A DNA stretch of 64,000 nt. Origin: Colwellia sp. (GTDB lineage: Bacteria; Pseudomonadota; Gammaproteobacteria; Enterobacterales; Alteromonadaceae). Shown in pieces: positions 30,239 to 64,000 of this stretch. The notes under the pieces were generated by a model. That model had not been told where the DNA came from, searched no databases, and was given only the letters and a program-made list of their open reading frames with translations. Where the stretch lies: contig JAPYOP010000004.1 in assembly GCA_029938115.1 (NCBI GenBank), positions 72,752 to 136,751 of the forward strand, written 5' to 3'. Numbering within the stretch: position 1 is the stretch's first letter; each line of letters opens with the position of its first letter. Both the position numbers and the translations under genes were made by a program.

Positions 30239-30621
30239 CTTAACGTACACCCACTATATTAATTCAACTGTAATAAGTATTATCCAGCCATCGGCGGAAA
30301 TTGAACTCAATTATAACTCACTTCCGCACCGCACCGCACTTAAATAATGCTACTTTCTGTAACTCTATTCACTATTATTTCTGAATAATGTTGAACGTAT
30401 CCATAATTCAGAACAAATTTATCGCCAGTTAGCAATGCGCTCTAATACTCTGTCGGTGCTACTGAACAGTTGACTGTCAGCTAATAAACATCGAGTTAAT
30501 CATCAGTTCAAAGTCGCAATATTATCCTTTAGTTCAACCAATGCAGGCCGCACATTGGTAGCCCCCTTGTTGGCGCTTCACACCACAAACGATTAATCTC
30601 TTTTACTCTCTCTTTATATTA

Positions 30622-49371: not shown

Positions 49372-49431
49372 GCGGTAAAAATACCTGTTTCAAAAGCTGG
49401 TAAATCATTGAAAGACATGATTAATACTTAG
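49372..49431 (+). pseudogene. Degraded HU-family gene remnant (C-terminal tail only is readable)
   Basis: The frame ending at TAG 49429-49431 reads AVKIPVSKAGKSLKDMINT*, which matches the HU C-terminus pattern K(V/I)P.FKAGK.LKD. Upstream frames are broken. It is positionally equivalent to the HU pseudogene at 59023-59294. Confidence 0.35.
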
Positions 49432-50827
49432 ACCGATATTATTTTAAAGGTGAGCATTTTAATTATTCCTCTGCTCACCTTTTCCACAAATGAATCATAA
49501 ATTAAAAACTAAAACTAAAACTAAAGAATTAATCCTCTTCATCTTCAACACGAACGCCCCAAACATCATGTTCATCGGCATGAATAATTTGTACCCAAAT
49601 TTGGTCGCCAGGTTTAGCATCGAAATCATCAGACAAATAAACTTTGCCATCAACTTCGGGGGCATCCATATAAGAGCGCCCTACTGCGCCAAGAGAATTG
49701 ACTTCATCAATTAAGATTAAATACTCTTGACCAATGCGAGCTTGTAATTTGTCGCTACTAATTTTTGCTTGTACAGCCATAAAGCGTTGTAGCCTGCCTT
49801 CCATCACTTCATCTGGAACATGATCCGGTAATGCGTTTGCCGTAGCGCCTTCAACAGGCGAATATTTAAAGCAACCTACGCGATCTAATTGTGCCTCTTC
49901 TAGAAATACCAATAGTTCTTCAAACTCTTCTTCAGTTTCTCCCGGAAAACCAACAATAAATGTTGAACGAATAACTAGCTCAGGGCAAATCTCACGCCAT
50001 TTAGCAATACGCTCTAACACACGGTCTGAGCTACCAGGACGTTTCATTAGTTTCAAAATACGTTTATTGGCATGCTGAAAAGGAATATCTAAATACGGCA
50101 GTATTTTTCCTTCTGCCATAAGAGGTATGATTTTATCAACATGTGGATAAGGGTAAACATAATGCAAACGAATCCAAACGCCCTGCTTGGCTAATTCTTC
50201 ACAAAGTTGCTGCATATGCGTTTTAACGGGCATACCATCCCAAAAGTCAGTTTTGTGTTTAACATCAACGCCGTATGCAGACGTGTCTTGAGAAATAACC
50301 AGCAACTCTTTAACGCCAGCATCAACTAAGCGCTTTGCTTCACCCAGTACATCACCCACAGGACGAGAGTCTAAATCGCCACGCATTGACGGGATTATGC
50401 AGAAGGTACAACGGTGATTACAGCCTTCTGATATTTTTAAATAGGCATAATGCTTAGGGGTAAGTTTAACCCCCTGTGGAGGTACTAAATCAATAAATGG
50501 ATTATGTACTGGCTTAGCAACATGCTTATGTACTTGTGTTAATACCTCATCATAAGCATGAGGACCTGTAACCCCAAGAACATTAGGATGAAGTTCGATA
50601 ATTTCATCTTTTTTAACACCTAAACAACCGGTAACCAACACCTTGCCATTTGCTGCTAACGCTTCACCTATGGTATCAAGTGATTCTTGTACCGCTGAAT
50701 CAATGAAACCACAGGTATTAACAATCACTAACTCAGCATCATCGTAGCTATTGGTTACATCATAGCCTTCAGTACGAAGTTGAGTAAGAATGCGTTCAGA
50801 ATCAACAAGATTCTTCGGGCAACCTAG
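49426..50827. repeat. Direct repeat copy A (rimO 3' 1.3 kb + terminator), paired with 59308-60703
   Basis: Collinear with copy B at a constant offset of 9876 nt through the coding part. About 8% mismatches in a 120-nt sample counted by eye. Similarity ends abruptly at 50827/50828. Confidence 0.85.
49446..49482. terminator. Bidirectional hairpin terminator downstream of the truncated rimO copy
   Basis: Stem aaaggtgagca (49446-49456) / tgctcaccttt (49472-49482). T-run on the + strand and A/T-rich on the - strand. Confidence 0.6.
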
Positions 50828-50836
50828 GTTGTTTAC
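49529..50836 (-). pseudogene. rimO: 5'-truncated rimO copy (lacks promoter and first ~52 codons; remaining 433 codons intact)
   Basis: The frame is open from 50836 to the stop at 49529. Homology to the full copy begins at ...[14 protein letters not shown] (50827), and an in-frame TAG lies at 50837-50839 just upstream. The radical-SAM motif CNHRCTFC is retained. There are 11 amino-acid differences in the 399 aa shared with the ORF-track protein. Confidence 0.85.
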
Positions 50837-51334
50837 CTAAGCCCTATCTTTAACCCTGTAACAGAGCTAAAACTACCATATACTCTTTTCATATTAACGT
50901 TAATTTGCTCGAAAAATGTGTTCAACAATTTACACTTCAAGGTCATTCTAGCAACCTCAAATGAAGTCTCCTGATAAGTAAGGGCAGGCGTTATTAATTC
51001 AAACTAGGCATAGAGTCATCTCATTTAATTGAACTTTTAATAGTGCACGTATTCATTTCTTGTATTAGATACAACGGACAAAACACCTTATCCCAGTTAG
51101 CAAAAGGACGGTACTTTGCTAGCTCCAAACAGTTTGAGAAACAACAGAAACAAGAGGTAACAAATTAATATCGACTCCACTTTCTTATTCCTTAGGTAAT
51201 GATAAAGCCAATAAGTATAAAAATATAATTTTTTGTTCCTAATTTAACCATAAGCACATTTTCATCATTGTATGACGTGATATTGTCATTTATATTAGAT
51301 GTTATTATTTCCTATAACGCCAGTTGCTTACGTG

Positions 51335-52009
51335 ATGCCTCAATTGTTATTTTATTTAAAAGCTTTAATGCTCGCTTACTTATATTTTTTGCTCTTTAGT
51401 TCAAATGCTGCCAATGCTAATTCATCGCTAAAATTATCTGATATTAAAGATGAGAACCTCGCGTCATGTATTTTAAAAAACGCGACGAAAATGCATTTAG
51501 AAATTGTAGAAGAGTTAACCCATTTAAAATGTCACGGCATGAACATCACTAATTTGGAAGGGCTAGAGATGTTGATAAATTTAGAGAAACTATCTCTATT
51601 CAATAACAGCCTAACTCATGCCGACCTTCGACCCTTTAAAAAACTCAAACATTTGAATGTTGCAAATAATAAGCTGGTAAACATCAATATTGTCGGTTTA
51701 TTACATTTAGAAAGTTTATACCTATTTAAAAACAAACTCGTTACGGTTGACTTTAAAGGCTTGAGTCAGCTCAAAAAAATTCGTATAACAAATAACAAGT
51801 TAAAAATACTAGATATTTCTGCACTGCTATCTCTTGAGAAAGCTTACTTTTTTGATAACAAACTTGAAGAGCTGGTTGTTGCAGGTCTGCCTAATATTAA
51901 ATTTATTGAATTAAGACAAAACCCCATGCCCGATGAGGTTTATGATAGGTACGATGCATTAGAGGGCATTACTATTATACATGATGGTAATGCCGATGAT
52001 TGGAAGTAA
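51335..52009 (+). CDS. Secreted leucine-rich-repeat (LRR) protein
   Basis: Signal peptide MPQLLFYLKALMLAYLYFLLFSSNAANA. About 7 LRRs of 22 aa (LxxLxLxxNxLxxhxhxxLxxL), for example LEKLSLFNNSLTHADLRPFKKLKHLNVANNKL. Start trimmed to ATG 51335. Confidence 0.75.
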   Translation: MPQLLFYLKALMLAYLYFLLFSSNAANANSSLKLSDIKDENLASCILKNATKMHLEIVEELTHLKCHGMNITNLEGLEMLINLEKLSLFNNSLTHADLRPFKKLKHLNVANNKLVNINIVGLLHLESLYLFKNKLVTVDFKGLSQLKKIRITNNKLKILDISALLSLEKAYFFDNKLEELVVAGLPNIKFIELRQNPMPDEVYDRYDALEGITIIHDGNADDWK

Positions 52010-52019
52010 ATCTATCGTC

Positions 52020-53279
52020 TTAAATGTTATAAGCTACCGATGCAAACCAAGTAGTTAAATCATTATTTGCTTTAGGAAAATAGTGCAAGCCATGCTTAAC
52101 ACGATAATCTGCAAAAACGAGCTTAAGCTCCCACTTTCTCGTCGCACGAAAGGCTAATTCAAAATCTAATTCTCTACCAATAACATTGCCATTTTGATAA
52201 TTTTTATAAACGTGATAAACACTCCGCCAGCGTAACTTTTTATATCGACCTTGATAGGTCAGATATTGATCTCGCAAGCCATTTTGCATACCGTAGCCGG
52301 TAAAAATATCAGCCCAACCTTGAAATTTATGATTAGTTCCTAATGGTGTGATAAAACCTTGCATATTATCTTCACTCAGTATTTCTTGGCTCAACTCAAT
52401 TCTATGACTTTTATACTGAACGCCAGCCTGTAGTAAACTATACCATGCTTGATAACTTACCTGATTATTGTCAGCATCTTGTTGTGTCGCAAATTCGACT
52501 GTATAGCGGTATTTAAATTTGTTTGGCTTAAACTCATCACTAATTCGCACACCAAATGTATTGGTGGAGAACCTTGCAAGATCATTATTTTCAAGAAAAT
52601 AACCATAACCAACGATCGAAAGATCATCTTCGGTTTTATACGCTACATTTACTAAATGTGCGTCTATACGGTGTTCACCTAGCTCATTAGCTGGACGCTT
52701 TTCAGTTAAACCATAGCGAATATCATCTTTTGGTATCGTAGCTGTGGAGTTTTGTCCGAAAATTCGATGAACTTTACTGCTATATGCATATTGTACATGC
52801 CAGTTGAGTTGATCATTATAATCAAACTTAAAAGCATCAAAACTTTGTGGTGTTTGCCAAAATTCAATTTCGCCTACAAAACGTTCATTATCAAACGCCA
52901 ACGCTTGGCGACCAAATATCAATTGCCAATTATCATCACTATCATATTGAAGATTGATTTTACTCCAATTAAAACCTTTTGGATCAGGAATAGCCGATGT
53001 CGCTTTTTTCACCGTAACTGAATTATAATCACCATCATTAAAAGCATAGACATAATTAGGCTCTAACAATAATTGCCATTGCTCGTTTTTATCCAAAGTG
53101 AAATTAGAGGTTAGCTTTACTCGTGTAGTAAATGCATGAGCATCCCCTAGCCAATTATCATTAACTTGCTGAAAACGAGTACGCATACCTAACTCATACT
53201 CACCGGGAATTTCCACCGCTAAAACATTATTTAAACAAGCAAAACTAACTAATAACGAAACAAAAACGGTATAAGCCAT
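52020..53279 (-). CDS. Alginate-export-family-like outer-membrane beta-barrel
   Basis: Signal peptide MAYTVFVSLLVSFACLNNVLA. The block WQLIFGRQALAFDNERFVGEIEFWQTPQSFDAFKFDY resembles the AlgE/alginate-export family core. Alternating beta pattern, C-terminal ...FASVAYNI. Start trimmed to ATG 53279 to remove the overlap with the anti-sigma gene. Confidence 0.65.
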   Translation of the reverse strand: MAYTVFVSLLVSFACLNNVLAVEIPGEYELGMRTRFQQVNDNWLGDAHAFTTRVKLTSNFTLDKNEQWQLLLEPNYVYAFNDGDYNSVTVKKATSAIPDPKGFNWSKINLQYDSDDNWQLIFGRQALAFDNERFVGEIEFWQTPQSFDAFKFDYNDQLNWHVQYAYSSKVHRIFGQNSTATIPKDDIRYGLTEKRPANELGEHRIDAHLVNVAYKTEDDLSIVGYGYFLENNDLARFSTNTFGVRISDEFKPNKFKYRYTVEFATQQDADNNQVSYQAWYSLLQAGVQYKSHRIELSQEILSEDNMQGFITPLGTNHKFQGWADIFTGYGMQNGLRDQYLTYQGRYKKLRWRSVYHVYKNYQNGNVIGRELDFELAFRATRKWELKLVFADYRVKHGLHYFPKANNDLTTWFASVAYNI

Positions 53280-53334
53280 TCTCTTCAAAGTTAAATCAGC
53301 TCGGGCATTACAGTCATTCTTAAGCGCATAAAAA

Positions 53335-54174
53335 TCAAACATCGTTTTTCCACTCTTGTAAACGCACACATAGACCACGAGAAACTATTAGACTACTGGG
53401 TTCACCGATGGCAGAGCCACCAAGCTCTTCAATAGTAACAATTAAAGACTCTGAGTCTTTTATTAAGCGCCATTGTGCGTTTGTTAATTGCTGTTCAATA
53501 AGTTTTTTACCGATAGAAATAACCCCTAAGCTTCTAGCTTCAGAGTCTGATTTAGACACGACCCACAACTCTAAAGACTGATCCTCATCAATCGTAGGGA
53601 TACCGACAACATTAACGATTAGTTTTTTCGATTCGCCATAGGTAGTTGCAACTAAATGTGCTTTACCGTCTGGTTCGGTCAATACTGCCACATAACTAAG
53701 TGGATCATTATTCTGCTCAAAAGGCTTGGTTATAAGTAACACCGATACGGCTAACATCGCAAATGAAAAAACACTGACATAGCGTATTGCCGGTCTCGTT
53801 AGCCATGACTTAAGCAATGAACTAAAAAAGTGAATTAAACCGGCTTCATTACTGGAATGTGACTCTATTTTAGTTGCCACCGTTTTTGATTTTTCAGTTA
53901 TTTCAATCGCATTTGCGATATTTTGCCAAACCTGTTCACTAGGAGGGAGTTCCTTGGTTTGTTGATCAAGAGGAACAAATCGTGTTTGCCAATACTCAAT
54001 ACGCTGAGCTAAGGCCTCGTTATAAACAGCCTGCTTCTCAACGCATTGATGAACATGGCGTGTTAAAGTCCCAAGCACATATTGGCTCGCTAAATGCCCA
54101 ATTATTTGGACGTTCTTATAACGTTCAGGTATTTTTGATGAAAATAGCGCATGAGAAGTTAATTGTTCAGACAT
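53335..54174 (-). CDS. Anti-sigma factor, RskA-type (single TM, periplasmic RskA-like domain)
   Basis: N-terminal sigma-binding region (LASQYVLGTL...), TM helix VSVFSFAMLAVSVLLI, and C-terminus LELWVVSKSDSEARSLGVI...LIVTIEELGGSAIGEPSS typical of RskA domains. Overlaps the sigma gene by 16 nt. Confidence 0.75.
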   Translation of the reverse strand: MSEQLTSHALFSSKIPERYKNVQIIGHLASQYVLGTLTRHVHQCVEKQAVYNEALAQRIEYWQTRFVPLDQQTKELPPSEQVWQNIANAIEITEKSKTVATKIESHSSNEAGLIHFFSSLLKSWLTRPAIRYVSVFSFAMLAVSVLLITKPFEQNNDPLSYVAVLTEPDGKAHLVATTYGESKKLIVNVVGIPTIDEDQSLELWVVSKSDSEARSLGVISIGKKLIEQQLTNAQWRLIKDSESLIVTIEELGGSAIGEPSSLIVSRGLCVRLQEWKNDV

Positions 54175-54788
54175 AACTGTAACCTCCCTAAGCCACGACG
54201 GATCCAAGATTTTATGGTATTAATCGGCGTATCAAAATAGTGAGCAATGTCCTCACGGCTGTAACCGTATAAATAAGCCATTAAAATACTTTGACTTTGT
54301 TTTTGCTCAAGTTTTGCTAAACAGTTATTTAGCAGTTGTTCACTGTGTTTATCTAAGCCCACTTGTGCAGAGTATTGGTTTATATTCTCTAACTGTTGCG
54401 GTGTTAATTCCATCTCATTAAATTGCACCATATCCTTTTGGTGCCGCCTTTGGTCATAGCGCAATCGATCATAAGCGCGATAGCGAACAATTGAGGCTAA
54501 CCAAGTGAATACTTCACTTTTATCAATATTATAACTGTCGCAATTTTGCCAAACCTGTATAAAAGCTTCCTGTAACACTTCGTTAGCACTATCAACATGA
54601 CGAGTAATACGATAGGCAATACCATTGAGACGAGCCGCAGTTAGTTGATAAAGTTCATTAAAAGCTTGTTTGTCACCTTGTTGGCATAATTGAAATAAAC
54701 ACGCTAATTTATCACCATCGTAACGACTTTTCTCTTTTACTTTGGTATTTTGCTCAGTCAATGTGATTTTTCCTTGTTGGTTTATCAT
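54159..54788 (-). CDS. ECF (group IV sigma-70) RNA polymerase sigma factor
   Basis: Region 2 (AFNELYQLTAARLNGIAYRITRHVDSANEVLQEAFIQVWQN...FTWLASIVRYRAYDRLR) and region 4 (ILMAYLYGYSREDIAHYFDTPINTIKSWIRRGL). Confidence 0.9.
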   Translation of the reverse strand: MINQQGKITLTEQNTKVKEKSRYDGDKLACLFQLCQQGDKQAFNELYQLTAARLNGIAYRITRHVDSANEVLQEAFIQVWQNCDSYNIDKSEVFTWLASIVRYRAYDRLRYDQRRHQKDMVQFNEMELTPQQLENINQYSAQVGLDKHSEQLLNNCLAKLEQKQSQSILMAYLYGYSREDIAHYFDTPINTIKSWIRRGLGRLQLCLNN

Positions 54789-54857
54789 CTTGATAAAATG
54801 AAAGTTTCATATATTTCAACCTAGTAAATCATAGGCTGGTCACAATTAAAAAGACAG

Positions 54858-55982
54858 TTAAAAATAAAAGTGGCTTTGTAAAAAGATGACGTCATAGTTT
54901 TGTTCTGGCATTTGGGGGATATCTTGCTTAACTCTAATGCCTAAACGCAGTTGAATATTTGAGAATGGCGTATACTCTGTAATAAAAGAATATCGTGTTT
55001 GTTCATTTTCGTCGACGTCATTATCAGGGTCAAAATACTCGGCGGTTAATTTAAAGTTCCAACCTTTTCGCCACTGATAATTCATTTCAATTAAACCTAC
55101 CTGTTGACTAATGTCTTGTTTAGTAAAAGTATTAGCTGCTTCTAAATTGATATAGTCTACTTCGGCTAACAATCCAATATTCCGCCATTGAGTCCCTGCA
55201 AACACATTAAACATTTTCGTTTGGTGGTCGCCGTCATTTAGCATTGCACTAGCACCTAATCTGAAATGTGGAAACAGATGTTCTATTCGAGTACCGTATA
55301 ACAAACTATCGTCGTCATTAGTCGCTTGACTCGTGCCGTTAGCCAAGTAAAGGTTTACGGTGGTTTTTCCAAAATTAACGCCATACTCAATGCCATTGTC
55401 GCTATTATCAAAGTTCATACCGGTGACTTGACGAATGAAAGCACTGTCATCTTCAATGCGTAATCCATATGGAATAAATAATTTTCCTGCTTTTAAATAG
55501 CTTGCTTGTAATGATGAATTTTCAGCAAAGTTATACATAACAAAAGCTTCACGGTTAATGGCACTTCCGGGGGCTACTTGTTCATCAACATAAAAAGATA
55601 AGCCTGTTTCAGGGATGCTAAAATGTAAGTAAATCTGCGCACTTTCCGTTGAAAAGCCTTTGCTAGTGTCGTTAGTTTCGGCTTCACTTTTTTGATAACT
55701 CGCGTTAAAACGAGCATCAGTGCCAATGGTTAAGAATTGTGTTAATTTAGCTATTGTTTTACTATCAAATTGATAAGTTTTGCGGGGTAATACTGTTTGT
55801 CCGTAATTTCTACCAAAATCATTTCGCAAACCACCGCCAATAGGGTTCACGTGGCATGCGCTGCATGCAAGGTTATTTTTAATGGCTAAATACGGCTCGG
55901 CTTGTGCTGCAATGCTAAAAGCAAATGCGATGACTGACGATAATATTATTACTGCGGTTATTCGTTTATAAAGAAAATTCAT
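54858..55982 (-). CDS. Outer-membrane beta-barrel protein with N-terminal CxxCH motif (candidate fused monoheme cytochrome-porin)
   Basis: Signal peptide MNFLYKRITAVIILSSVIAFAFSIAAQA. CSACH at mature residues 12-16 (nt 55851-55865). Then about 340 aa with an alternating amphipathic pattern, ending in the aromatic ...LQSHFYF. Start trimmed to ATG 55982, which overlaps the upstream stop by 17 nt. Confidence 0.6.
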   Translation of the reverse strand: MNFLYKRITAVIILSSVIAFAFSIAAQAEPYLAIKNNLACSACHVNPIGGGLRNDFGRNYGQTVLPRKTYQFDSKTIAKLTQFLTIGTDARFNASYQKSEAETNDTSKGFSTESAQIYLHFSIPETGLSFYVDEQVAPGSAINREAFVMYNFAENSSLQASYLKAGKLFIPYGLRIEDDSAFIRQVTGMNFDNSDNGIEYGVNFGKTTVNLYLANGTSQATNDDDSLLYGTRIEHLFPHFRLGASAMLNDGDHQTKMFNVFAGTQWRNIGLLAEVDYINLEAANTFTKQDISQQVGLIEMNYQWRKGWNFKLTAEYFDPDNDVDENEQTRYSFITEYTPFSNIQLRLGIRVKQDIPQMPEQNYDVIFLQSHFYF

Positions 55983-56862
55983 AATAAAATACTCCTCCTT
56001 CAATGCCATTATTATCACCATCTATAATTTGCCCTTGTTGAGTAACCATAGTTGCGATACTGCTTTCATTTAACCGAATCATTAACTTGGTAATGTCGCG
56101 ATCTAACCCCTGCACACTCACTTGTATGCTCTGGTCGTTAATAACATGAATTGAAACTTGCTCATTAGAAACCAACGTCGAATAAACCGATGATAGGGAA
56201 CCTTTAAAACTGTTAACAAGTATTTGATCATTAGTTAAGTTGGCGAAATTCATTGCTTTGTTAAACCAAAAAACTATCGTTATTGCGTTTTTTTCTCGCC
56301 ATATATAATCATTTTGACTCATAAAGTCGGCAACATTTTCTTCTGATACATTCTCTTTAAACTTTACTATAGTGACTACTGCTCGGTTGATTTTTGCCAT
56401 GTTTGCAGTGTTTTGTGGGATCACCGCTCCTTCATCTATCCATTGTTTAATTGCGGAAATAGTTTGCTCATCAAGTGCAGACTGCCCCAATGGCATACGA
56501 GCACCTGCCCGGTTATCACCTGTGATTTTGAGGTATAGATAGCTTTCTTGAGCAGAGCCGGGCAAAACTCGTTTAAATAACGAATTTGAAGAGTCTACGT
56601 TTATTAAGTTATCAATTGAACTTTCAAGTGATGACAAATCTTGTCCTGCTGCTGGGTTAGCTCCTCCATGACAAACAGAACAAATAGGTGTAAATACGTG
56701 ATCTTGAATTGATGGTAACGTTGCTTGAATGCCGTCTTCCACCAGCGGTACTTCGGTTATTTCATCAAGAGGGCGGCCTTGTTCATCTAACCCATCACCA
56801 CTTCCTGCGTTACAACCAGAAAAAAGTAGTAAACAAATAGCTAAAGATAATGGAAGTTTCAT
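55966..56862 (-). CDS. Lipoprotein with PSCyt1-like c-type cytochrome domain + Ig-like C-terminal domain
   Basis: Lipobox LLFSGC. HVFTPICSVCHGG...RVLPGSAQESYLYLKI...MPLGQSALDEQTISAIKQWIDEGA follows the pattern of the planctomycete-type cytochrome c domain (CxxCH at nt 56668-56682). The C-terminus ...IIDGDNNGIEGGVFYYEFSL resembles bacterial Ig-like domains. Start trimmed to ATG 56862. Confidence 0.65.
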   Translation of the reverse strand: MKLPLSLAICLLLFSGCNAGSGDGLDEQGRPLDEITEVPLVEDGIQATLPSIQDHVFTPICSVCHGGANPAAGQDLSSLESSIDNLINVDSSNSLFKRVLPGSAQESYLYLKITGDNRAGARMPLGQSALDEQTISAIKQWIDEGAVIPQNTANMAKINRAVVTIVKFKENVSEENVADFMSQNDYIWREKNAITIVFWFNKAMNFANLTNDQILVNSFKGSLSSVYSTLVSNEQVSIHVINDQSIQVSVQGLDRDITKLMIRLNESSIATMVTQQGQIIDGDNNGIEGGVFYYEFSL

Positions 56863-56932
56863 AGCACATCTCGTTTTCATTAATACATGAAAACCCAACA
56901 CTAGATAATATTAGTGTTGAGTTTGGTCGACG

Positions 56933-58933
56933 CTACGGGCGAGCAATTGTCCAACTAGGGTAATCTCCAGTCGTATCACCAATTTCACTGTCACCTATAT
57001 AGAAATACAATGGTAAGCCTTGATAAGACCATTGATAGGTTGTTGTATCATTTTCTGCACGAGAAATAATGGTATAATCACCAAAGGCTTGCTCTGGAGA
57101 TATTGCATAAATCGGTGGCCATAAGGCCGCACAACTATCAAAACAAACACTAACACCTGAATCTTTCACATCTGAATCAAAAGTGTATAAAGTTAACCCT
57201 TTAAGTTCCTCGGCTGTTTTACCAATACTGTCAAGTACATCGCCATGAGCCACCAGTAACGGCCCCTCAGTTTCATGATCATCAACTTTAATTGGTGCCG
57301 GTCGTGCAACATGCCAAATTGAATTTACATTTTCACCCTTGATATCATCAGCAGTTTCATCTGGCGTGAAAAAATATAACGCCATATCATTTATTGCCCA
57401 CTGCTTGCTACCATTACTGCGGGTAATGATTGAAAATGGCGCAGTTGCTACATCAGTTTTATCGGCAATTAAGGGTGGCCAAGCAGCTAAACAGTCACCT
57501 TCACAAAGACTGACACCCGCCGTGTCGTTATCAAAGGTATAAAGTGCAAAGCCAGTTTTATTAGCGATTGAATCAACAAATTCGTTAGTATTCTCATCGC
57601 GTATTAAGGTATGAACAGCACCTTCTAAGGTTAACGTAGCCCCTAATATATTGATTTCCTGTTTTAATACCGTGTTAACAGGGGTGATTAAATGCCAAAT
57701 ACCATTGATCCCATCACCATTGATTTCTCCTCTGGCAAAGTCGCTTTTAAAGAAATAAAGTGGCATGTCTTGAAAAGCCCACTGCTTAGTTCCGTCGTTT
57801 CGGCTAATTAGACTAAATTCCCCAATGGCAACATCTTCCTCATTTGGTACAAATGCAGGCCAAATATCTAAACAAGCATCAATACAGTTTGATGTGCCCG
57901 TTGTATCGTTATCAAATACGTATAAGCTAAAACCATCTTTATCCATGGTTGTAACGGTATTGGCTAAGGCCGACACATTAACCATGCCCGTTGCTGATAA
58001 TGAACGGCCATTGGCTGTGGTGCGTTGTATAGCGGGCTCTTGTGTGGCTATATGCCAGATATCATTGACTTCATCACCGTTCACATCTCCTGCGGCATTA
58101 TCATTTACAAAGAAATATAAAGGTTTGCCTTTATATGCCCACTGCATATTGCCGTTACTCACCTCAATAATACTTAAAGGTGGCATTGCCATAGCGCCAG
58201 TATCAGCAAGCAGAGGTGGCCAAATATTGATACAATCACCTGCACAGGCAGTATCATTTAACGGATCGTTATCAAAGCTATAGAGGGCAAAGCCCGCCTT
58301 ATCCCTACGCATTTGAGACAAGACTCCTGAACTATCACTAACCGTAAGAATAGTTTCGTTACCGATATAGCTATTCACACCTGAGAGATTAGCTGACATT
58401 AATGGCGTAGGGCGTGCAAGGTGCCAAACATTGTTAATACCATCTCCGCCAATATCTCCCTGAGCAGAGTCTAGATACCAGTGGTACAAAGGCTGGCCTT
58501 TATAAGCCCATTGCATATCACCCTCACCGCGAGCAACTATGGTCATTAATTCGTCTATTTCAGCTCCCTCTCCAGCAAGTAGTGGCGGCCACCGGCCAGC
58601 ACAGGTATCAGTATCATCTGGCGTACCTTCACAACTTGAAGAATTTATTTCGTCATTATCGAAGGTATACAAAGACAAGCCAGATTCAGCAATAATTAAT
58701 GAACCATTGTTATTTACAACCGTTACATTTGGCTTAGAGATCTGGCTTGGAAAGACTGCTGTCGGCGTAGACGGTGGTGGATCAATATAAGGATCATCAT
58801 TCGTTGATGAAGAGGATCCACCGCCACCTCCTCCACAAGCAGAAAGTACAACAACGGCAACACTAGAAATTAAAATGTATTTTGTATAATTGATTAAGGT
58901 AATAATGAGTTTACTTTTTATTTGCTTATGCAT
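56933..58933 (-). CDS. Large lipoprotein with 10 COG4315 / PF03640-type repeats (5 tandem double modules)
   Basis: Lipobox VLSAC followed by GGGGGGSSSS. There are five modules. Each has a repeat G(F/L)xLYxFDxD...C..(C)...WPP(L/I) followed by a repeat (Q)W(A/S)(Y/F/I)...PLY(F/H)(F/W/Y)..D...GD..G......W(H/T)(L/I/V)A. This is the Yx(FWY)xxD lipoprotein motif. Start uncertain: ATG 58933, 58963 or 59008. Confidence 0.75.
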   Translation of the reverse strand: MHKQIKSKLIITLINYTKYILISSVAVVVLSACGGGGGGSSSSTNDDPYIDPPPSTPTAVFPSQISKPNVTVVNNNGSLIIAESGLSLYTFDNDEINSSSCEGTPDDTDTCAGRWPPLLAGEGAEIDELMTIVARGEGDMQWAYKGQPLYHWYLDSAQGDIGGDGINNVWHLARPTPLMSANLSGVNSYIGNETILTVSDSSGVLSQMRRDKAGFALYSFDNDPLNDTACAGDCINIWPPLLADTGAMAMPPLSIIEVSNGNMQWAYKGKPLYFFVNDNAAGDVNGDEVNDIWHIATQEPAIQRTTANGRSLSATGMVNVSALANTVTTMDKDGFSLYVFDNDTTGTSNCIDACLDIWPAFVPNEEDVAIGEFSLISRNDGTKQWAFQDMPLYFFKSDFARGEINGDGINGIWHLITPVNTVLKQEINILGATLTLEGAVHTLIRDENTNEFVDSIANKTGFALYTFDNDTAGVSLCEGDCLAAWPPLIADKTDVATAPFSIITRSNGSKQWAINDMALYFFTPDETADDIKGENVNSIWHVARPAPIKVDDHETEGPLLVAHGDVLDSIGKTAEELKGLTLYTFDSDVKDSGVSVCFDSCAALWPPIYAISPEQAFGDYTIISRAENDTTTYQWSYQGLPLYFYIGDSEIGDTTGDYPSWTIARP

Positions 58934-58971
58934 GATCATAATCCATCCAATTTTAGGTTTCATATAAGCAA

Positions 58972-58996
58972 TACGCCGCAAAAAAAATAAAGTTGC
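58972..58996 (-). promoter_or_regulatory. Candidate ECF-type promoter (AAC-N16-CGTA) upstream of the lipoprotein operon
   Basis: The minus strand reads gtgcAAC-tttattttttttgcgg-CGTAt, with exactly 16 nt between AAC and CGT. This matches the minimal ECF -35/-10 signature. It lies 39 nt upstream of ATG 58933. Pattern match only. Confidence 0.3.
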
Positions 58997-59022
58997 ACTA
59001 ATGTTCATTTATAAATAAAAAT

Positions 59023-59294
59023 ATGAATAAAAGTGAATTGGTAGGAAAATCGCTGAAGGGGCAGATATATCAAAAGCTTCTGATATTCGGGCGTTAGATA
59101 GTTTGATTGGCTCTATCACTGAAGAATTATCTAATGGAGGTGAAGTTGCATTAGTGGGTTTTGGTACTTACAAAGTTAATGAACGTGCTGCTCGTAAGGT
59201 TCGTAATCTTCATACAGGTGCGGGAATTCAAATCGCTGCTGCAAAAGTAGCTGCTGTTAACGGTGAGTTATTTAGGTCAAAAATGCCCTGCTGA
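59023..59294 (+). pseudogene. HU-family DNA-binding protein gene, frameshifted
   Basis: ATG 59023 gives MNKSELVGK and then runs out of frame to TAG 59095-59097. Adding one A to the a4 run at 59046-59049 restores [58 protein letters not shown]..., which joins the track ORF 59103-59294. The conserved RNP motif reads RNL, and the C-terminal tail departs from the HU pattern. Confidence 0.7.
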
Positions 59295-59307
59295 TACATG
59301 GTATAAA

Positions 59308-60703
59308 ATTTGGACCGCTATTATTATAAAGGCGAGTGTTTAAATGATTCTCCTACTCGCCTTTTTCACAAAGAAACCATCAATTGAAAACTTAACCTAA
59401 ATCGTTAAGCTTCTTCATCTTCGACACGAACGCCCCAAACATCATGCTCATCTGCATGAATAATTTGAACCCATATTAGGTCGCCAGGTTTGGCATCAAA
59501 ATCATCAGACAAATAAACTTTGCCATCAACTTCTGGTGCATCCATATAAGAACGCCCTACTGCGCCAAGAGAATTTACTTCATCAATGAGAATTAAATAT
59601 TCTTGGCCAATGCGTGCTTGTAGTTTATCCGCACTGATTTTAGCTTGTACTGCCATGAAACGCTGTAAGCGTTCTTCCATTACTTCATCTGAAACATGGT
59701 CAGGTAGAGCATTCGCCGTAGCACCTTCAACAGGCGAGTATTTAAAACAACCTACACGGTCTAATTGCGCTTCTTCTAAAAAGTCTAATAACTCTTCAAA
59801 TTCTTCTTCAGTTTCACCTGGAAAACCAACAATAAACGTTGAACGAATAACGAGTTCAGGACAAATTTCTCGCCATTTAGCAATACGCTCTAAGACTCTG
59901 TCTGAGCTACCAGGACGTTTCATTAGTTTAAGGATACGTTTGTTAGCATGCTGAAAAGGAATATCTAAATACGGTAATATTTTACCTTCTGCCATAAGAG
60001 GTATGATTTTATCAACATGCGGATAAGGGTAAACATAATGCAAACGGATCCATACGCCCTGCTTCGCTAACTCTTCACATAACTGCTGCATGTGTGTTTT
60101 AACGGGCATGCCTTCGTAGAAATCCAATTTATGTTTAACATCAACACCATAAGCAGAGGTATCTTGAGAAATGACTAGCAACTCTTTTACACCTGAATCA
60201 ACTAAACGTTTGGCTTCGCCTAATACATCTCCCACAGGACGAGAGTCTAAATCGCCACGCATTGAAGGGATAATGCAGAAAGTACAACGATGGTTGCAGC
60301 CTTCTGATATTTTTAAATACGCATAATGTTTAGGTGTTAACTTCACACCTTGTGGCGGTACTAAATCAATAAACGGATTATGCACGGGCTTTACAACATG
60401 CTTATGTACTTGTGTTAATACTTCATCGTATGCATGAGGGCCTGTTACACCTAATACATTAGGGTGCAATTCGATAATTTCATCTTTCTTAACACCTAAA
60501 CAACCGGTAACCAATACTTTACCATTTGCGGCTAACGCTTCACCGATGGTATCAAGTGATTCTTGCACCGCTGAATCAATAAAACCACAGGTATTTACAA
60601 TCACTAATTCTGCATCATCGTAGCTATTGGTTACATCATAACCTTCGGTGCGAAGTTGAGTAAGAATACGCTCTGAGTCCACTAAGTTCTTTGGGCAGCC
60701 GAG
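59308..60703. repeat. Direct repeat copy B (inside and downstream of full-length rimO), paired with 49426-50827
   Basis: See copy A. Same orientation. Contains the terminator and codons ~53-484 of rimO. Confidence 0.85.
59328..59366. terminator. Bidirectional hairpin terminator between the HU pseudogene and rimO
   Basis: Stem aaaggcgagt (59328-59337) / actcgccttt (59355-59364) followed by a T-run. Homologous to the hairpin at 49446-49482, with compensatory stem changes. Confidence 0.6.
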
Positions 60704-60859
60704 ACTGACAAAACCTATTTTCGCAGCGCGATTTGACTCTGTATTTGCAGTAACGACGGCCTGATGCTGTTCTTCAATCATTTTAGATGGAATGTCTAAC
60801 GTGGTTGTTTGGCTCTGAGCTGAATTACTTGTGCTTGGGTCAAATTGCTTAACGGTCAT
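59405..60859 (-). CDS. rimO: Ribosomal protein S12 methylthiotransferase RimO (full length)
   Basis: 484 aa. N-terminal MTTase cysteines ([22 protein letters not shown]), radical-SAM CNHRCTFC, and a C-terminal TRAM domain. The ~45-aa N-terminal extension before KIGFVSLGC suggests the real start may be an internal ATG. Confidence 0.95.
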
Positions 60860-61151
60860 AGGCGCCTTTGCTAATCAATAGCGTGTTTCAGGTGATTTTT
60901 AGTGCGCGGATTATACAGGATTACGATGTAGAAGTCTGTATAACTTGGGACTGGCTGATGTGTTTTTTGCACACAAACTTGGTCACCAACTTCAACATAA
61001 AACCCATCCAATAAATTTCACCGTCAAGATAATGTGTTTGGTTTCGTTGTTTATAAACTTAAATCATGTTTAAAAACACCAAATTATTTTTAATAATTGG
61101 ACTAAACTTAGGAATTACTGCTTTTATCTTCCCAATTAAAAAGAAGAAATA

Positions 61152-62030
61152 ATGAGATGTTTTGCAATTATCTATCTGCTTCTTTATTCCGTTTTGTTTT
61201 CGGAATATATTCACGCAATTGAAAAACCAACAATACGTTGGTTAACTTGGCAACAAGCACCAAACTTTATCATTGAAGGAAAATTTAAGGGGCAAGGTAT
61301 TGGTGGAACTTTAACAAAAAAACTTCAAGATAACTTACCTCAATATAACCATATAAACGTATTAAGCAATACTAGAAGGTATCAATCTCTCATAAAAGAA
61401 AAAAACGTTTGTGTTGCTTGGGCTTGGATCGTACCTGGAAGTGAAAAATATCGAATTCATAGTAGAGCCGTTTCATTAGCACCTCGTTCAGGCATTCAAA
61501 TTTTGAAAACAAAACAACATTTATTTGGTAAACCAGGAGAAACATTATCTCTAAAAAATCTGTTAACGAACCTTGATCTAAAACTAGGTTATTTAGAAGA
61601 GATGACCTATTCCAAACGAGTTCATGAACTACTTGAGGAAAATAGAAATAAAGGCAACATTCATTTCTCATCAAGAAATGAGGTTGAATTTAATTTATCA
61701 ATGCTGGACAGAGAACATTTAGATTACTTTTTTAGCTTTTCAGCGCAAGCTATTTTTGATGCAGAATTAAAAGGCATTAACAATAAATATCAGTTTTACA
61801 ATATTGAAGAAATGGACCTTTATACAAGTATGCACACCCATTGTTCTAAAACGCCTTTTGGTGAACAAGTTATGTCTGAGGTTGAAAAAATCCTAACAAA
61901 TGATACATTGATGGAACATTTATCAGTAATTGAAAGATGGCATGGAGAGAATAAAGCATATCGAGATATATTCATGAAATACGTAATTAACCGTGAAGTA
62001 ACAGCTATTGTGACTAATCCTGGTCAATGA
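61152..62030 (+). CDS. Periplasmic solute-binding-like protein (family-3 / TIGR02285-like), function unknown
   Basis: Signal peptide MRCFAIIYLLLYSVLFSEYIHA. The N-terminal IRWLTWQQAPNFI...GQGIGG pattern recalls a family common in Alteromonadales. This is an impression, not verified. Confidence 0.5.
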   Translation: MRCFAIIYLLLYSVLFSEYIHAIEKPTIRWLTWQQAPNFIIEGKFKGQGIGGTLTKKLQDNLPQYNHINVLSNTRRYQSLIKEKNVCVAWAWIVPGSEKYRIHSRAVSLAPRSGIQILKTKQHLFGKPGETLSLKNLLTNLDLKLGYLEEMTYSKRVHELLEENRNKGNIHFSSRNEVEFNLSMLDREHLDYFFSFSAQAIFDAELKGINNKYQFYNIEEMDLYTSMHTHCSKTPFGEQVMSEVEKILTNDTLMEHLSVIERWHGENKAYRDIFMKYVINREVTAIVTNPGQ

Positions 62031-62124
62031 AACATCAAATGATATTGTTTAATAAATAAATGCAAAATAGAAAAAAATTAATTTTAATAAAAATATTACC
62101 TCTATATTTTAAGAGCAACTTTGC

Positions 62125-64000
62125 ATGAATTATCTATCGCTGATTTTTGCTGGTTCTATAGCTCGAAAGCTATCAATGGCGTTAATTTTGTTAGGCTTTG
62201 CCGCGACTTTAGTCATTTCAACAATCGAAATATATTGGGATTATAAAGCTGAACTTAAACATATTAATAGTCGATTAGAAAGTATTCAAGAGACGCATGC
62301 TCCAAGTATTGCATCAAACGTATGGAATGTTTCTCATAAACAAATACAAACTCAGTTACAAGGCTTGCATAGTATTTCCGAATTTTCGTATATTGAAATT
62401 ACAACACCACATGACGATTTTTGGTCAGAAGGAGAAAAATTAGCCACTAACGTATTAGTTAAAAGCATCCCATTAAAGTATGCTGATTTGGGCGAAAACT
62501 TGTTAGTTGGAACCATGGTTATTCAGGTAAATGTAGACGAAGTATTTAACAAAATCACTGCTAAGGCAATTCAAACGTTTTTCTATTTTGCTGTATGGAT
62601 ATTTATCCTCGCTGGATGTCAATTTCTTATATTTAGATATTTAGTCACTCGACACTTAAACCACATTGCTAATTACACCTCTTCAATGAAGTTCATCGAT
62701 GAGGAGAAAGACCTAATACTCGAACGAAATATTTCTACGAATAGTTCTTCTGACGAGCTGGACTCTGTTGTTTATTCAATAAACTCCCTTCGAAATCTAG
62801 TTACTAATTATACAGATGAGATTAAAAAGAACGAACAACGCTTTAGAGGGTTATTTGAAAATACGGATGTTGCTATTTGGAATGAAGATCTTTCACAAGT
62901 TTACCTTGCGCTAAGAGAACTAAAATCAAAAGGAATCATCGATCTAAAATCTTATTTAACAGAAAACGAAAATATAGCCTTCGAACTAGCAGAAGAAGTT
63001 AATGTTATTCAAGTAAATGAAGCAACACTTAATTTTTTTCAAGCAAAGTCTCAAGAAGACTTACTTGATAATATAAGCAAAACATTTGGTGACGATGCAA
63101 TAACAGTTTTTATTGAGCAACTATGCTGCATTTGGGATAAGAAAAAAACATTTCGAGCTGAAGCAAATTTTCTAGGGTTAAAAGGAAAAAAATTTACTGC
63201 GATTGTCTCCTATCAAATCCCAGAGAATGATGAAGGCTTCAAAAGTGTATCAGTAAGTATGTTTGATATTAGTAAACGTAAAGAGGATGAACAAAAGCTA
63301 CTTACTCAAAGCAAGATCATTACAAATATGACAGAAGGAGCTTATCTTATACGGTGTAGTGACTCATTAATCGTTTATGCTAATCCAACTTTTGAAAGTA
63401 TGTTTGGTTATGAAAAAAATGAAATGTTAGGAAAGCATGTATCGATTGTAAATGCACCTAGCGAATTTTCCCCTGAAGATTTAGCTTCCAATATAATTAC
63501 TAAATTAAAGCAAGACAATAAATGGAGTGGTGACGTAAAAAACATTCGCAAAGACGGCTCTACTTTTTGGTGTTTTGCCAATGTATCAAGTTTTATACAT
63601 CCTGAATTTGGTGAAGTTTGGCTTGCAGTTCATGCGGATATCACTGAAAGAATAAAAATGGAAGAAATATTACGTCGAACACAAAAAATGGATGCTGTGG
63701 GAAAACTCACAGGAGGAATAGCCCACGACTACAATAATATGCTTTCAATAGTTGCTGGATATTCAGAACTATTAGAACGGCACCTAAAAGAACAACCTAA
63801 ACTACTGGAGTATGCTGAACAAATAAACCATGCAGCAGAGCGTGGTGCGCATATGACCAAAAAACTACTGGCTTTTTCAAAAGCTGACATTGGAGATTAT
63901 GAACCTGCAAACATCAATGTAATATTGCAAGAACAACAAGAAATGATCCAAAAAACCCTTACTCCACGAATAAATCTTGAGTTTAATTTTTCTGATAACA
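62125..64000 (+). CDS. Membrane PAS sensor histidine kinase (partial; runs off the window end)
   Basis: Not in the ORF track because it has no stop. My own translation from ATG 62125 is open through 64000. Two TM helices flank a ~120-aa loop, followed by PAS modules (RGLFENTDVAIWNED...; ITNMTEGAYLIRCSD...MLGKHVSIVNAP...GSTFWCFANV) and the H-box KMDAVGKLTGGIAHDYNNMLS. Confidence 0.85.
   Translation, partial: MNYLSLIFAGSIARKLSMALILLGFAATLVISTIEIYWDYKAELKHINSRLESIQETHAPSIASNVWNVSHKQIQTQLQGLHSISEFSYIEITTPHDDFWSEGEKLATNVLVKSIPLKYADLGENLLVGTMVIQVNVDEVFNKITAKAIQTFFYFAVWIFILAGCQFLIFRYLVTRHLNHIANYTSSMKFIDEEKDLILERNISTNSSSDELDSVVYSINSLRNLVTNYTDEIKKNEQRFRGLFENTDVAIWNEDLSQVYLALRELKSKGIIDLKSYLTENENIAFELAEEVNVIQVNEATLNFFQAKSQEDLLDNISKTFGDDAITVFIEQLCCIWDKKKTFRAEANFLGLKGKKFTAIVSYQIPENDEGFKSVSVSMFDISKRKEDEQKLLTQSKIITNMTEGAYLIRCSDSLIVYANPTFESMFGYEKNEMLGKHVSIVNAPSEFSPEDLASNIITKLKQDNKWSGDVKNIRKDGSTFWCFANVSSFIHPEFGEVWLAVHADITERIKMEEILRRTQKMDAVGKLTGGIAHDYNNMLSIVAGYSELLERHLKEQPKLLEYAEQINHAAERGAHMTKKLLAFSKADIGDYEPANINVILQEQQEMIQKTLTPRINLEFNFSDN

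Follow-up and report, generated by a model that had tools for sequence, protein, structure and literature searches.

A probable attachment-site junction at codon 53 of rimO beside an island without a recombinase in Colwellia

How does a set of chromosomal genes come to lie between two diverged copies of the same housekeeping gene when no integrase is found near them? This question is raised by a 64,000-nucleotide stretch of a Colwellia sp. contig (JAPYOP010000004.1), hereafter called the window, which its best rimO matches also assign to Colwellia. It holds a full-length rimO and, 9876 nt away in the same orientation, a 5'-truncated second copy, with an HU-family pseudogene and a seven-gene module built around an extracytoplasmic function (ECF) sigma factor between them (Table 1). 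An earlier note on this DNA explained the layout by homology alone, either as a single Campbell-type crossover of a circularised foreign fragment or as homology-facilitated illegitimate recombination, the truncated edge being an arbitrary fragment end. The layout does imply that imported DNA recombined with a resident rimO, but the plain, homology-only form of this explanation is contradicted by the recurrence of the same junction in other Colwellia. On balance, the boundary between positions 50827 and 50828 is probably an attR-type junction at a recurrent site-specific hotspot, whose core of about 15 nt encodes LGCPK (codons 53-57 of rimO), and the incoming DNA would have been an island without a recombinase that brought a passenger rimO with it.

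The geometry of the two copies is simple. Compared without gaps at an offset of 9876 nt, positions 49529-50827 and 59405-60703 show 70-97% identity per 30 nt, and outside this range the identity drops to a background of 10-40%. The local alignment gives a gap-free block of 1299 nt, corresponding to codons 53-484 plus the stop codon, and the second copy thus lacks the first 52 codons, as had been described. Similarity continues downstream for 101 + 7 nt (49415-49522 versus 59296-59404), interrupted by one 6-nt and one 1-nt indel, and includes the terminator-like hairpin that follows the stop codon in both copies, where two pair changes are compensatory (GGCGAGT/ACTCGCC versus GGTGAGC/GCTCACC). 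At the other end, homology to the full gene stops sharply between 50827 and 50828. An in-frame TAG lies three codons upstream of the homology, at 50837-50839, and the truncated copy has no start codon until a GTG at 50728 (codon 86). The RimO model TIGR01125 matches both copies, the full one with 596 bits and the truncated open reading frame (ORF) with 523 bits, from model position 40.

The two copies are 86.7% identical, with 173 differences in 1299 nt, 145 of which fall at third codon positions, and no identical run is longer than 35 nt. The earlier note had counted 11 residue differences in 399; the 11 stand, over 433 aligned residues, and the first is at residue 156. The rates of synonymous (dS) and nonsynonymous (dN) divergence are 0.88 and 0.025, and the dN/dS ratio of 0.029 is far from the value near 1 that would have spoken against two functional alleles. 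The truncated copy has no frameshift and no internal stop. Its private residues number 4, against 0-4 in working copies and 27 in the decayed copy of a relative (L081; L-numbers denote loci of relatives, taken from metagenome contigs, metagenome-assembled genomes (MAGs) and isolate genomes, plus L112 and L113 from Escherichia coli). The claim that two functional alleles from separate lineages were joined recently is therefore borne out, and the lack of decay in the truncated copy argues that it belonged to a functional rimO up to a very short time ago.

Colwellia RimO proteins carry an N-terminal extension of about 46 residues ahead of the start of the TIGR01125 model (60704-60859 in the window, and in its homologues). 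This extension is highly variable in sequence and length among species, close homologues measuring 472-507 aa, and no short form of about 430 aa is found among the best 120 protein-database matches.

The break at codon 53 is not peculiar to the window. In at least seven other Colwellia contigs, a truncated copy starts at the same Leu53 of LGCPK after a shared motif of about 20 nt, with different cargo in each. Such starts are seen in L002, L081/L082/L090, L089/L094, L098/L099/L091, L092, and L088, where TAGGGTTGGTGTAAATATG or a decayed form of it precedes the gene. The Colwellia junction consensus reads TAGGGTTGGTGTAAATATG followed directly by CTNGGCTGYCCNAARAA, every truncated copy with a surviving 5' end starts at codon 53, and the 5' end of the rimO repeat is fixed at the core in at least eight lineages. 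A degenerate version of the junction pattern returned nine stretches from metagenome contigs, seven of which are such junctions, and neither the window nor the 101 loci contain the motif at any other place. In several relatives a truncated or decayed second copy lies downstream of a full rimO, and the cargo includes a porin and a methyl-accepting chemotaxis protein in L002, an HU pseudogene, an AraC gene and a beta-lactamase in L081/L082, about 10 kb of redox and regulator genes in L089, an M4 peptidase and an insertion sequence (IS) in L098/L099/L091, and an outer-membrane protein in L116. The neighbours of rimO differ on both sides in nearly all relatives.

The complementary pieces are found as well. 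Five rimO 5' fragments lie upstream of full genes (one each in L002, L096, and L116, two in L003), and no two share a right-hand partner; the last bases are CCNAAR in four of them and GGCT in the fifth. The ends of the 5' fragments and the starts of the 3' fragments therefore overlap in the approximately 15 nt that encode LGCPK. In L002 and L116 the full rimO is flanked by both a resident 5' fragment and a truncated 3' part, and several junctions can be stacked at the gene, as in L003 with its two 5' fragments and L102 with several rimO remnants.

These recurrences bear directly on the plain form of the homology explanation, in which a random foreign fragment with a 3' portion of rimO entered by a single crossover or by homology-facilitated illegitimate recombination. 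Long diverged direct repeats do bracket the cargo, integrase and tRNA are both absent, and the host-like composition of the cargo would agree with a Colwellia donor. Even so, the explanation is improbable, because the breakpoint and its motif of about 20 nt recur in at least seven other contigs with other cargo and 5' fragments of independent origin stop within these same 15 nt, the chance of four further independent breaks falling in about 17 of 1455 nt being near 1e-8 by a rough hand estimate. Furthermore, the core equals a known attachment site.

That site is known from the Burkholderia cenocepacia phage JC1, whose integration into the 5' end of rimO makes use of an overlap of 18 bp beside the serine recombinase gene, with a phage-supplied ATG that keeps RimO in frame (PMC9144972). 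The attP of JC1 reads ...ATAGGTATAGTATCCCTCGGGTGCCCGA, encoding IGIVSLGCP, and the genome region ATGTCGAAGAAGTATAGTATAGGTATAGTATCCCTCGGGTGCCCGAGA, encoding MSKKYSIGIVSLGCP, uses the same codons as the Colwellia core. A scan of IMG/VR for the core and the codons that follow it gave five contigs, each of which pairs rimO with a divergently oriented gene for a JC1-like recombinase (E = 1e-34 to 1e-39), an arrangement also present in the MAG locus L026. Among 5426 complete E. coli genomes, seven carry a prophage with a JC1-like recombinase divergent from rimO. In one of them, MFDS1016424, the native 5' part of the gene, promoter included, runs up to GGCTGCCCAAAAAAT, where it is joined to CAAG..., beside bssR; the attR reads ATGGCTAAGATTGGATTTATATCATTAGGCTGT, and some 32 kb from the 5' fragment the rebuilt gene starts with ATGGCTAAGATTGGATTTATATCATTAGGCTGTCCG, encoding MAKIGFISLGCP. 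In L112/L113 (E. coli NZ_CP106924.1, ~3064500-3096750), a prophage of about 32 kb lies between bssR and rimO, with a 581-aa 'recombinase family protein' divergent from a rebuilt rimO of 435 aa.

The junction of the window at codon 53 is thus the conserved (S)LGCPK-coding core used by the JC1 attP and by the E. coli attL and attR. In the intact gene the corresponding nucleotides are where all truncated copies start and where the 5' fragments of relatives end, and their codons are those of the JC1 and E. coli attachment-site overlap. The DNA on the other side of the core fits as well. The element-side arms all are in-frame mimics of rimO codons 47-52, and the Colwellia motif follows this rule, as GGG GTT GGT GTA AAT ATG gives GVGVNM, followed by L. 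By sequence, then, the motif resembles the phage-side (P) arm of the JC1 and E. coli sites. In L088, L089, L092, and L098 it has the form GGTG...ATG CTN GGC, with a start codon for the displaced body, whereas the motif of the window has lost its ATG and there is a TAG upstream. A codon-53 start that recurs at a site known from phage recombinases points to a hotspot and not to a one-off, homology-guided insertion. The earlier description of the edges was accordingly right in that integrase, transposase and tRNA are missing; an att-like feature does, however, exist at the truncated edge. Other readings of the motif were considered and rejected, since Chi-like, dif/Xer-like and integron-site resemblances are loose and by eye only.

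The ages of the joined pieces differ. The block 50820-59032 of the window recurs at 94.7% identity in a Colwellia MAG (L102, with L103 and L104), and the shared block extends through the spacer and the decayed motif into the core, of which it covers the first 8 nt. The 100 nt of non-coding DNA beside the motif are about 87% identical between the window and L102-L104, and the motif has decayed in the same way in both, with the ATG gone and 2 nt deleted. After the core, L102 continues into unrelated DNA, weakly similar at the same offset to the partner of one L003 5' fragment (z = 3.7), and its core with the following DNA may be an intact attP-like site. The seven-gene module is also found in L105, at 72% identity and away from any rimO, and is therefore ordinary chromosomal material. 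Cargo and motif are thus older than the present junction, and since a decayed P-core end meets a rimO body with 4 private residues and no indel, the core is the precise point at which an old end was attached to a gene that was still fresh.

The L102 locus itself appears to have undergone several successive events. It has extra genes around the block, and at 5886-6304, 6380-6969, and 18207-18376 it shows two internal rimO fragments and an insertion of about 390 nt, flanked by two copies of the HU start with some 28 nt of intergenic DNA.

The age gap also helps to weigh a more elaborate form of the homology explanation. Here, a circle that already held motif, core, rimO 3' part, terminator, HU pseudogene and cargo would have been inserted by RecA through a single crossover within the 1.3 kb of homology. 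The circle could have originated by aberrant excision, by attB x attP recombination on a donor chromosome, or through excision by RecA where a donor had these repeats too, and the site-specific step would belong to the past of the island and not to this genome. The topology fits, the order of the cargo being a circular permutation of P arm, core, rimO and downstream genes. No recombinase is present, homologous exchange is seen to act on these repeats in relatives (the L081 and L091/L092 mosaics), and large serine integrases normally recombine attP with attB only, not attR-type sites with attB. The truncated copy is nevertheless fresh right up to a decayed motif, where a random crossover would leave a decayed stretch, and the same is true of the truncated copy in L098. 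A 13% divergence without any identical run above 35 nt is a poor RecA substrate, and the model leaves unexplained why five 5' fragments, each with another partner, stop in the core. A RecA crossover as the last step is rated below a site-specific one and is considered rather unlikely.

The mosaics just mentioned are informative in their own right. The truncated copy of L081 matches the full copy beside it at 92-96% over its last ~800 nt but at only 82-84% over its first 400 nt. The truncated copies of L091 and L092 are 98% identical in their last 300 nt only; their dS is 1.09, and the 130-170 nt that they share upstream are 83% identical. In the window, the sliding-window affinity to third parties that had been suggested for locating the crossover stays at 82-91% throughout, with no clear switch.

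Could the truncated copy instead be the product of an ancient, vertically inherited duplication, with turnover of the cargo and gene conversion from the full copy keeping it intact? The junction motif is common to several lineages, the best match of any truncated copy is the full rimO in the same genome (86.7%, 87.8%, and 88.8%), and a conversion tract is seen in L081. This scenario is still very improbable: the truncated copies do not cluster as one clade, a pseudogene would carry replacements and indels (as do the 27 private residues of L081) where the window shows a dS of 0.88, a dN/dS of 0.029 and no identical tract above 35 nt, and the dS of 1.09 between L091 and L092 stands beside an upstream stretch that the two share. 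Nor is a misassembly that joined two rimO alleles of a mixed sample a serious contender. Nothing beyond the existence of two diverged copies speaks for it, the flanking DNA of each copy is unique, independently assembled isolate genomes and MAGs show the same architecture, and the junction between cargo and motif is reproduced in the three independent contigs L102-L104, so that its probability is negligible.

Under the favoured reading, a site-specific event at the LGCPK core, the truncated copy would be the displaced 3' part of the genome's own rimO, functional until recently. The genes that come after the truncated copy of L098, DJ-1/PfpI and CadC-like, are those found after the single full rimO in L003 and L085/L086; this copy thus stands in its native downstream context, and the truncated copy of the window is taken to be the resident one as well. 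The ~19 nt upstream of it would be a decayed P arm of the type used by rimO-targeting large serine recombinases, which in better-preserved Colwellia relatives supplies an ATG right before Leu53. The DNA between the copies would be a chromosomal import from another Colwellia lineage that carried its own rimO, from which at least codons 53-484 of the now expressed gene would derive; the full copy is predicted to be expressed from its own upstream region. The incoming form may have been a non-autonomous island with an attP-like site and the passenger rimO, with recombination at the core within the resident rimO. Such an event should yield, in order, 5' fragment, island flank, full rimO, cargo, P arm, core and resident 3' part, as in L002 and L116. 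The layout of the window could then result from RecA-mediated deletion between the short 5' repeats, or the 5' fragment may lie beyond coordinate 64000; that of L003 could result from deletion between the 3' repeats. As no recombinase is found in any of the Colwellia loci, and no free element either, the enzyme would have to act in trans.

Several observations weigh against this reading. The P arm of the window lacks its ATG and is changed at about 7 of 19 positions, and a recombinase might not bind it. Under the attP x attB rule, the simplest circle, with a P-core-rimO hybrid site, would be no legitimate substrate. The identity of the resident copy is not directly demonstrated, and no close relative with an empty site, and no identical proteins on record, were found. 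The rimO copies and HU pseudogene next to the L102 block are only 80-85% identical to those of the window, far less than the block itself, so the island did not travel whole and unaltered. The 3.1 kb that the window covers ahead of the full gene (60860-64000) contain no rimO 5' fragment. Neither the window nor the DNA beside any Colwellia junction encodes a serine or tyrosine recombinase, searches for recombinase remnants beside the Colwellia P arms gave insignificant matches only, and the Colwellia junction pattern has 0 matches in IMG/VR viral contigs.

Wider searches for mobility functions were likewise negative. The 64 kb contain no tRNA, and Pfam and domain scans found no integrase, transposase or recombinase domain in the cargo or in the neighbouring genes on either side. 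JC1 gp1 and five of its relatives gave no tblastn match in the window or in any Colwellia locus, and no recombination or transfer genes were found inside the island of the window or those of relatives. Plasmid and phage collections yielded chromosomal rimO only in place of a free element, and no autonomous Colwellia element that could mobilise the island was found, the attR-type end being its only recognisable end. By composition, too, the cargo looks like the remainder of the window (tetranucleotide r = 0.969, GC 0.375 versus 0.362).

An IS91/ISCR-type Y2 (HUH) transposase is present in L091, L098, and L116 only and is absent from the window. It was rejected as the cause of the junctions, being a private insertion: L088 and L092 share 130-170 nt by the motif without the IS. 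The Y2 transposase is accompanied by a 300-aa tyrosine recombinase (L091 6574-8685, L098 15359-17470, L116 7989-8857); the proteins are 84-98% identical across different metagenomes and frameshifted in L116, and the pair looks like an active IS of these Colwellia populations that lands in rimO islands.

A wider and quite tentative proposal is that a family of recombinase-less islands in Colwellia carries a full rimO and an attP-like site, lands at the LGCPK core either through a serine recombinase encoded elsewhere, in the manner of a satellite, or without a dedicated enzyme, and then sheds one flank by recombination between rimO repeats. If true, rimO would be a portable landing pad that collects defence and envelope modules on both of its sides.

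Among relatives, the DNA between 5' fragment and full rimO holds defence-type genes: SLATT_5 and two unknown ORFs in L002 (6485-9491), and NERD, DUF4365, DUF6998, and a methyltransferase in L116 (390-6032). Upstream of the full rimO in L098/L099 (1-9300) lie a relaxase (PF03432), a fragment of an IS3-type helix-turn-helix protein, and a pair formed by an OLD-family/AAA_15 ATPase and a UvrD-like helicase that resembles a Gabija-type defence system, no defence library having been searched.

The features of the window are collected in Table 1. The HU pseudogene has a frameshift after MNKSELVGK that alters its C-terminus, identical to that in the metagenome locus L081, while the L004 homologue is intact with 90 aa. 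The Lipoprotein_15 gene contains four copies of a 37-nt direct repeat (57525-58689, spaced 360-387 nt), which reflect nine repeats in the protein. The closest homologue of cargo gene 3, 94% identical, is in a Colwellia MAG, and homologues are widespread in Alteromonadales.

Table 1. Coordinates of the two rimO copies, the junction and the cargo in the window
Feature	Position	Strand	Basis
Tail of truncated copy: terminator-like hairpin (~49446-49482) and last ~20 codons of an opposite-strand HU-like gene	49415..49528	-	
5'-truncated rimO, codons 53-484 + stop	49529..50827	-	TIGR01125; alignment; private-residue count
Probable junction core CTAGGTTGCCCGAAG, the first 15 nt of the truncated copy	50813..50827	-	
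Putative decayed P-arm motif TAGGGCTTAGGTAAACAAC; consensus of relatives TAGGGTTGGTGTAAATATG, with GGTG and ATG	50828..50846	-	
Non-coding spacer from leucine-rich-repeat gene to motif, also in L102-L104	50847..51298	.	
Cargo gene 7: leucine-rich-repeat protein, convergent with the operon	51299..52009	+	domain matches
Cargo gene 6: probable outer-membrane protein, 452 aa	52020..53378	-	weak Alginate_exp match; conserved operon member
Cargo gene 5: anti-sigma factor (RskA_C)	53335..54207	-	domain matches
Cargo gene 4: ECF sigma factor	54159..54788	-	domain matches
Cargo gene 3: hypothetical protein, 387 aa	54858..56021	-	no Pfam family
Cargo gene 2: hypothetical protein, 311 aa	55966..56901	-	no Pfam family; same operon in L102-L105
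Cargo gene 1: secreted Lipoprotein_15-repeat protein, 691 aa	56933..59008	-	PF03640, 9 repeats, E = 2e-101; NF040526
HU-family (Bac_DNA_binding) pseudogene, convergent with rimO	59023..59297	+	Pfam on L081 homologue
Tail after full copy, common to truncated copy; terminator-like hairpin (~59328-59364)	59296..59404	-	
Full-length rimO, 484 aa	59405..60859	-	TIGR01125, 596 bits; alignment with truncated copy
Core site in intact rimO, CTCGGCTGCCCAAAG, codons 53-57 (LGCPK), attB-equivalent	60689..60703	-	

Two further stretches of the window deserve mention. About 2 kb of AT-rich DNA (31-34% GC) at 62030-64000 lie upstream of a gene of the TIGR02285 family and contain no ORF reaching 60 aa in a listing that would omit any ORF running off the window end; this gene shows no BLASTP similarity to the one beside a distal 5' fragment of L003 and so gives no support to upstream synteny between the two loci. 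A 41-nt stretch of intergenic, hairpin-rich sequence is 90% identical between the window (30478-30517) and L091 (6401-6441), where it adjoins the junction motif of L088/L091/L092, and may be a small dispersed Colwellia repeat.

What looked like an insertion by homology alone thus becomes a recognisable attachment-site scar, and a little-known core in the 5' end of rimO is extended from Burkholderia phage JC1 to E. coli prophages and marine Colwellia. In Colwellia, rimO fragments are the sign of a hotspot at which islands accumulate to either side of rimO, including islands with defence-type genes such as an OLD-family ATPase with a UvrD helicase, SLATT, NERD, and DUF4365. For annotation, 'short' rimO calls beside a full copy should be described as displaced gene parts and not as paralogues. 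Because the core is conserved across Beta- and Gammaproteobacteria, its recombinases could be broadly useful as integration tools, and the route by which islands without a recombinase reach the rimO site is an experimentally tractable question.

Among known systems, the JC1-like elements are the closest. They share the (S)LGCPK-coding target, leave a native 5' fragment ending at CCNAAR, and, like the Colwellia relatives, have an arm that acts as an in-frame rimO mimic supplying a start codon for the displaced body. They are, however, complete prophages in which 40-75 nt separate the arm from the recombinase gene, whereas the Colwellia island has neither recombinase nor phage genes. They also rebuild a near-normal N-terminus and so keep a single rimO, while the Colwellia arm gives only a Met before Leu53 and the island brings a second, full-length rimO, hence the 1.4-kb direct repeat.

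Replacement of a gene end is also known from phage 21 and e14, which integrate in icd of E. coli: here too the insertion lies inside a coding gene, the replacement 3' end differs mostly synonymously and the native end is left as a fragment, but the replacement covers about 165 nt and the elements have their own tyrosine recombinase, against about 1.3 kb (90% of the gene) and none in the window. In complex class 1 integrons formed by ISCR1, a circular intermediate is rescued through homologous recombination, and a partial duplicate of a conserved segment likewise brackets the captured genes; ISCR1 is present there, and no such element in the window. The classical islands of tyrosine integrases at tRNA or tmRNA genes differ in that the window has no tRNA target or integrase, and a Campbell insertion is alike in that the insert is bracketed by direct repeats of the shared segment.

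Cis-mobilizable elements (CIMEs) and site-specific accretion at attachment sites are known, for example, from the fda gene of Streptococcus thermophilus. The concept of these elements and of accretion has been reviewed (PMC5704250). Both cases involve islands with att-type junctions, no recombination or transfer genes, and junctions stacked at one target, but CIMEs keep short att repeats, whereas here the repeat is nearly the whole target gene and the left boundary is an intact gene and not an attL. The dusA islands integrate in the 5' end of a conserved housekeeping gene, as the Colwellia island would have done, and restore that end (PMC4482086), yet a tyrosine integrase is always adjacent and the duplication is short. 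For a genomic island or partial integrative and conjugative element of Acidithiobacillus ferrooxidans, the published tables give rimO as attB and direct repeat and list no integrase gene (PMC10322971); as far as these tables allow a comparison, that element differs in its 53-165 kb and its type IV secretion genes. An apparent literature link between rimO and genomic islands in Methylophilaceae proved false, the match being to the name 'Rimov Reservoir'. The known part of the arrangement described here is therefore integration in the 5' end of rimO, and the new part is an island without a recombinase that carries a replacement copy of nearly gene length.

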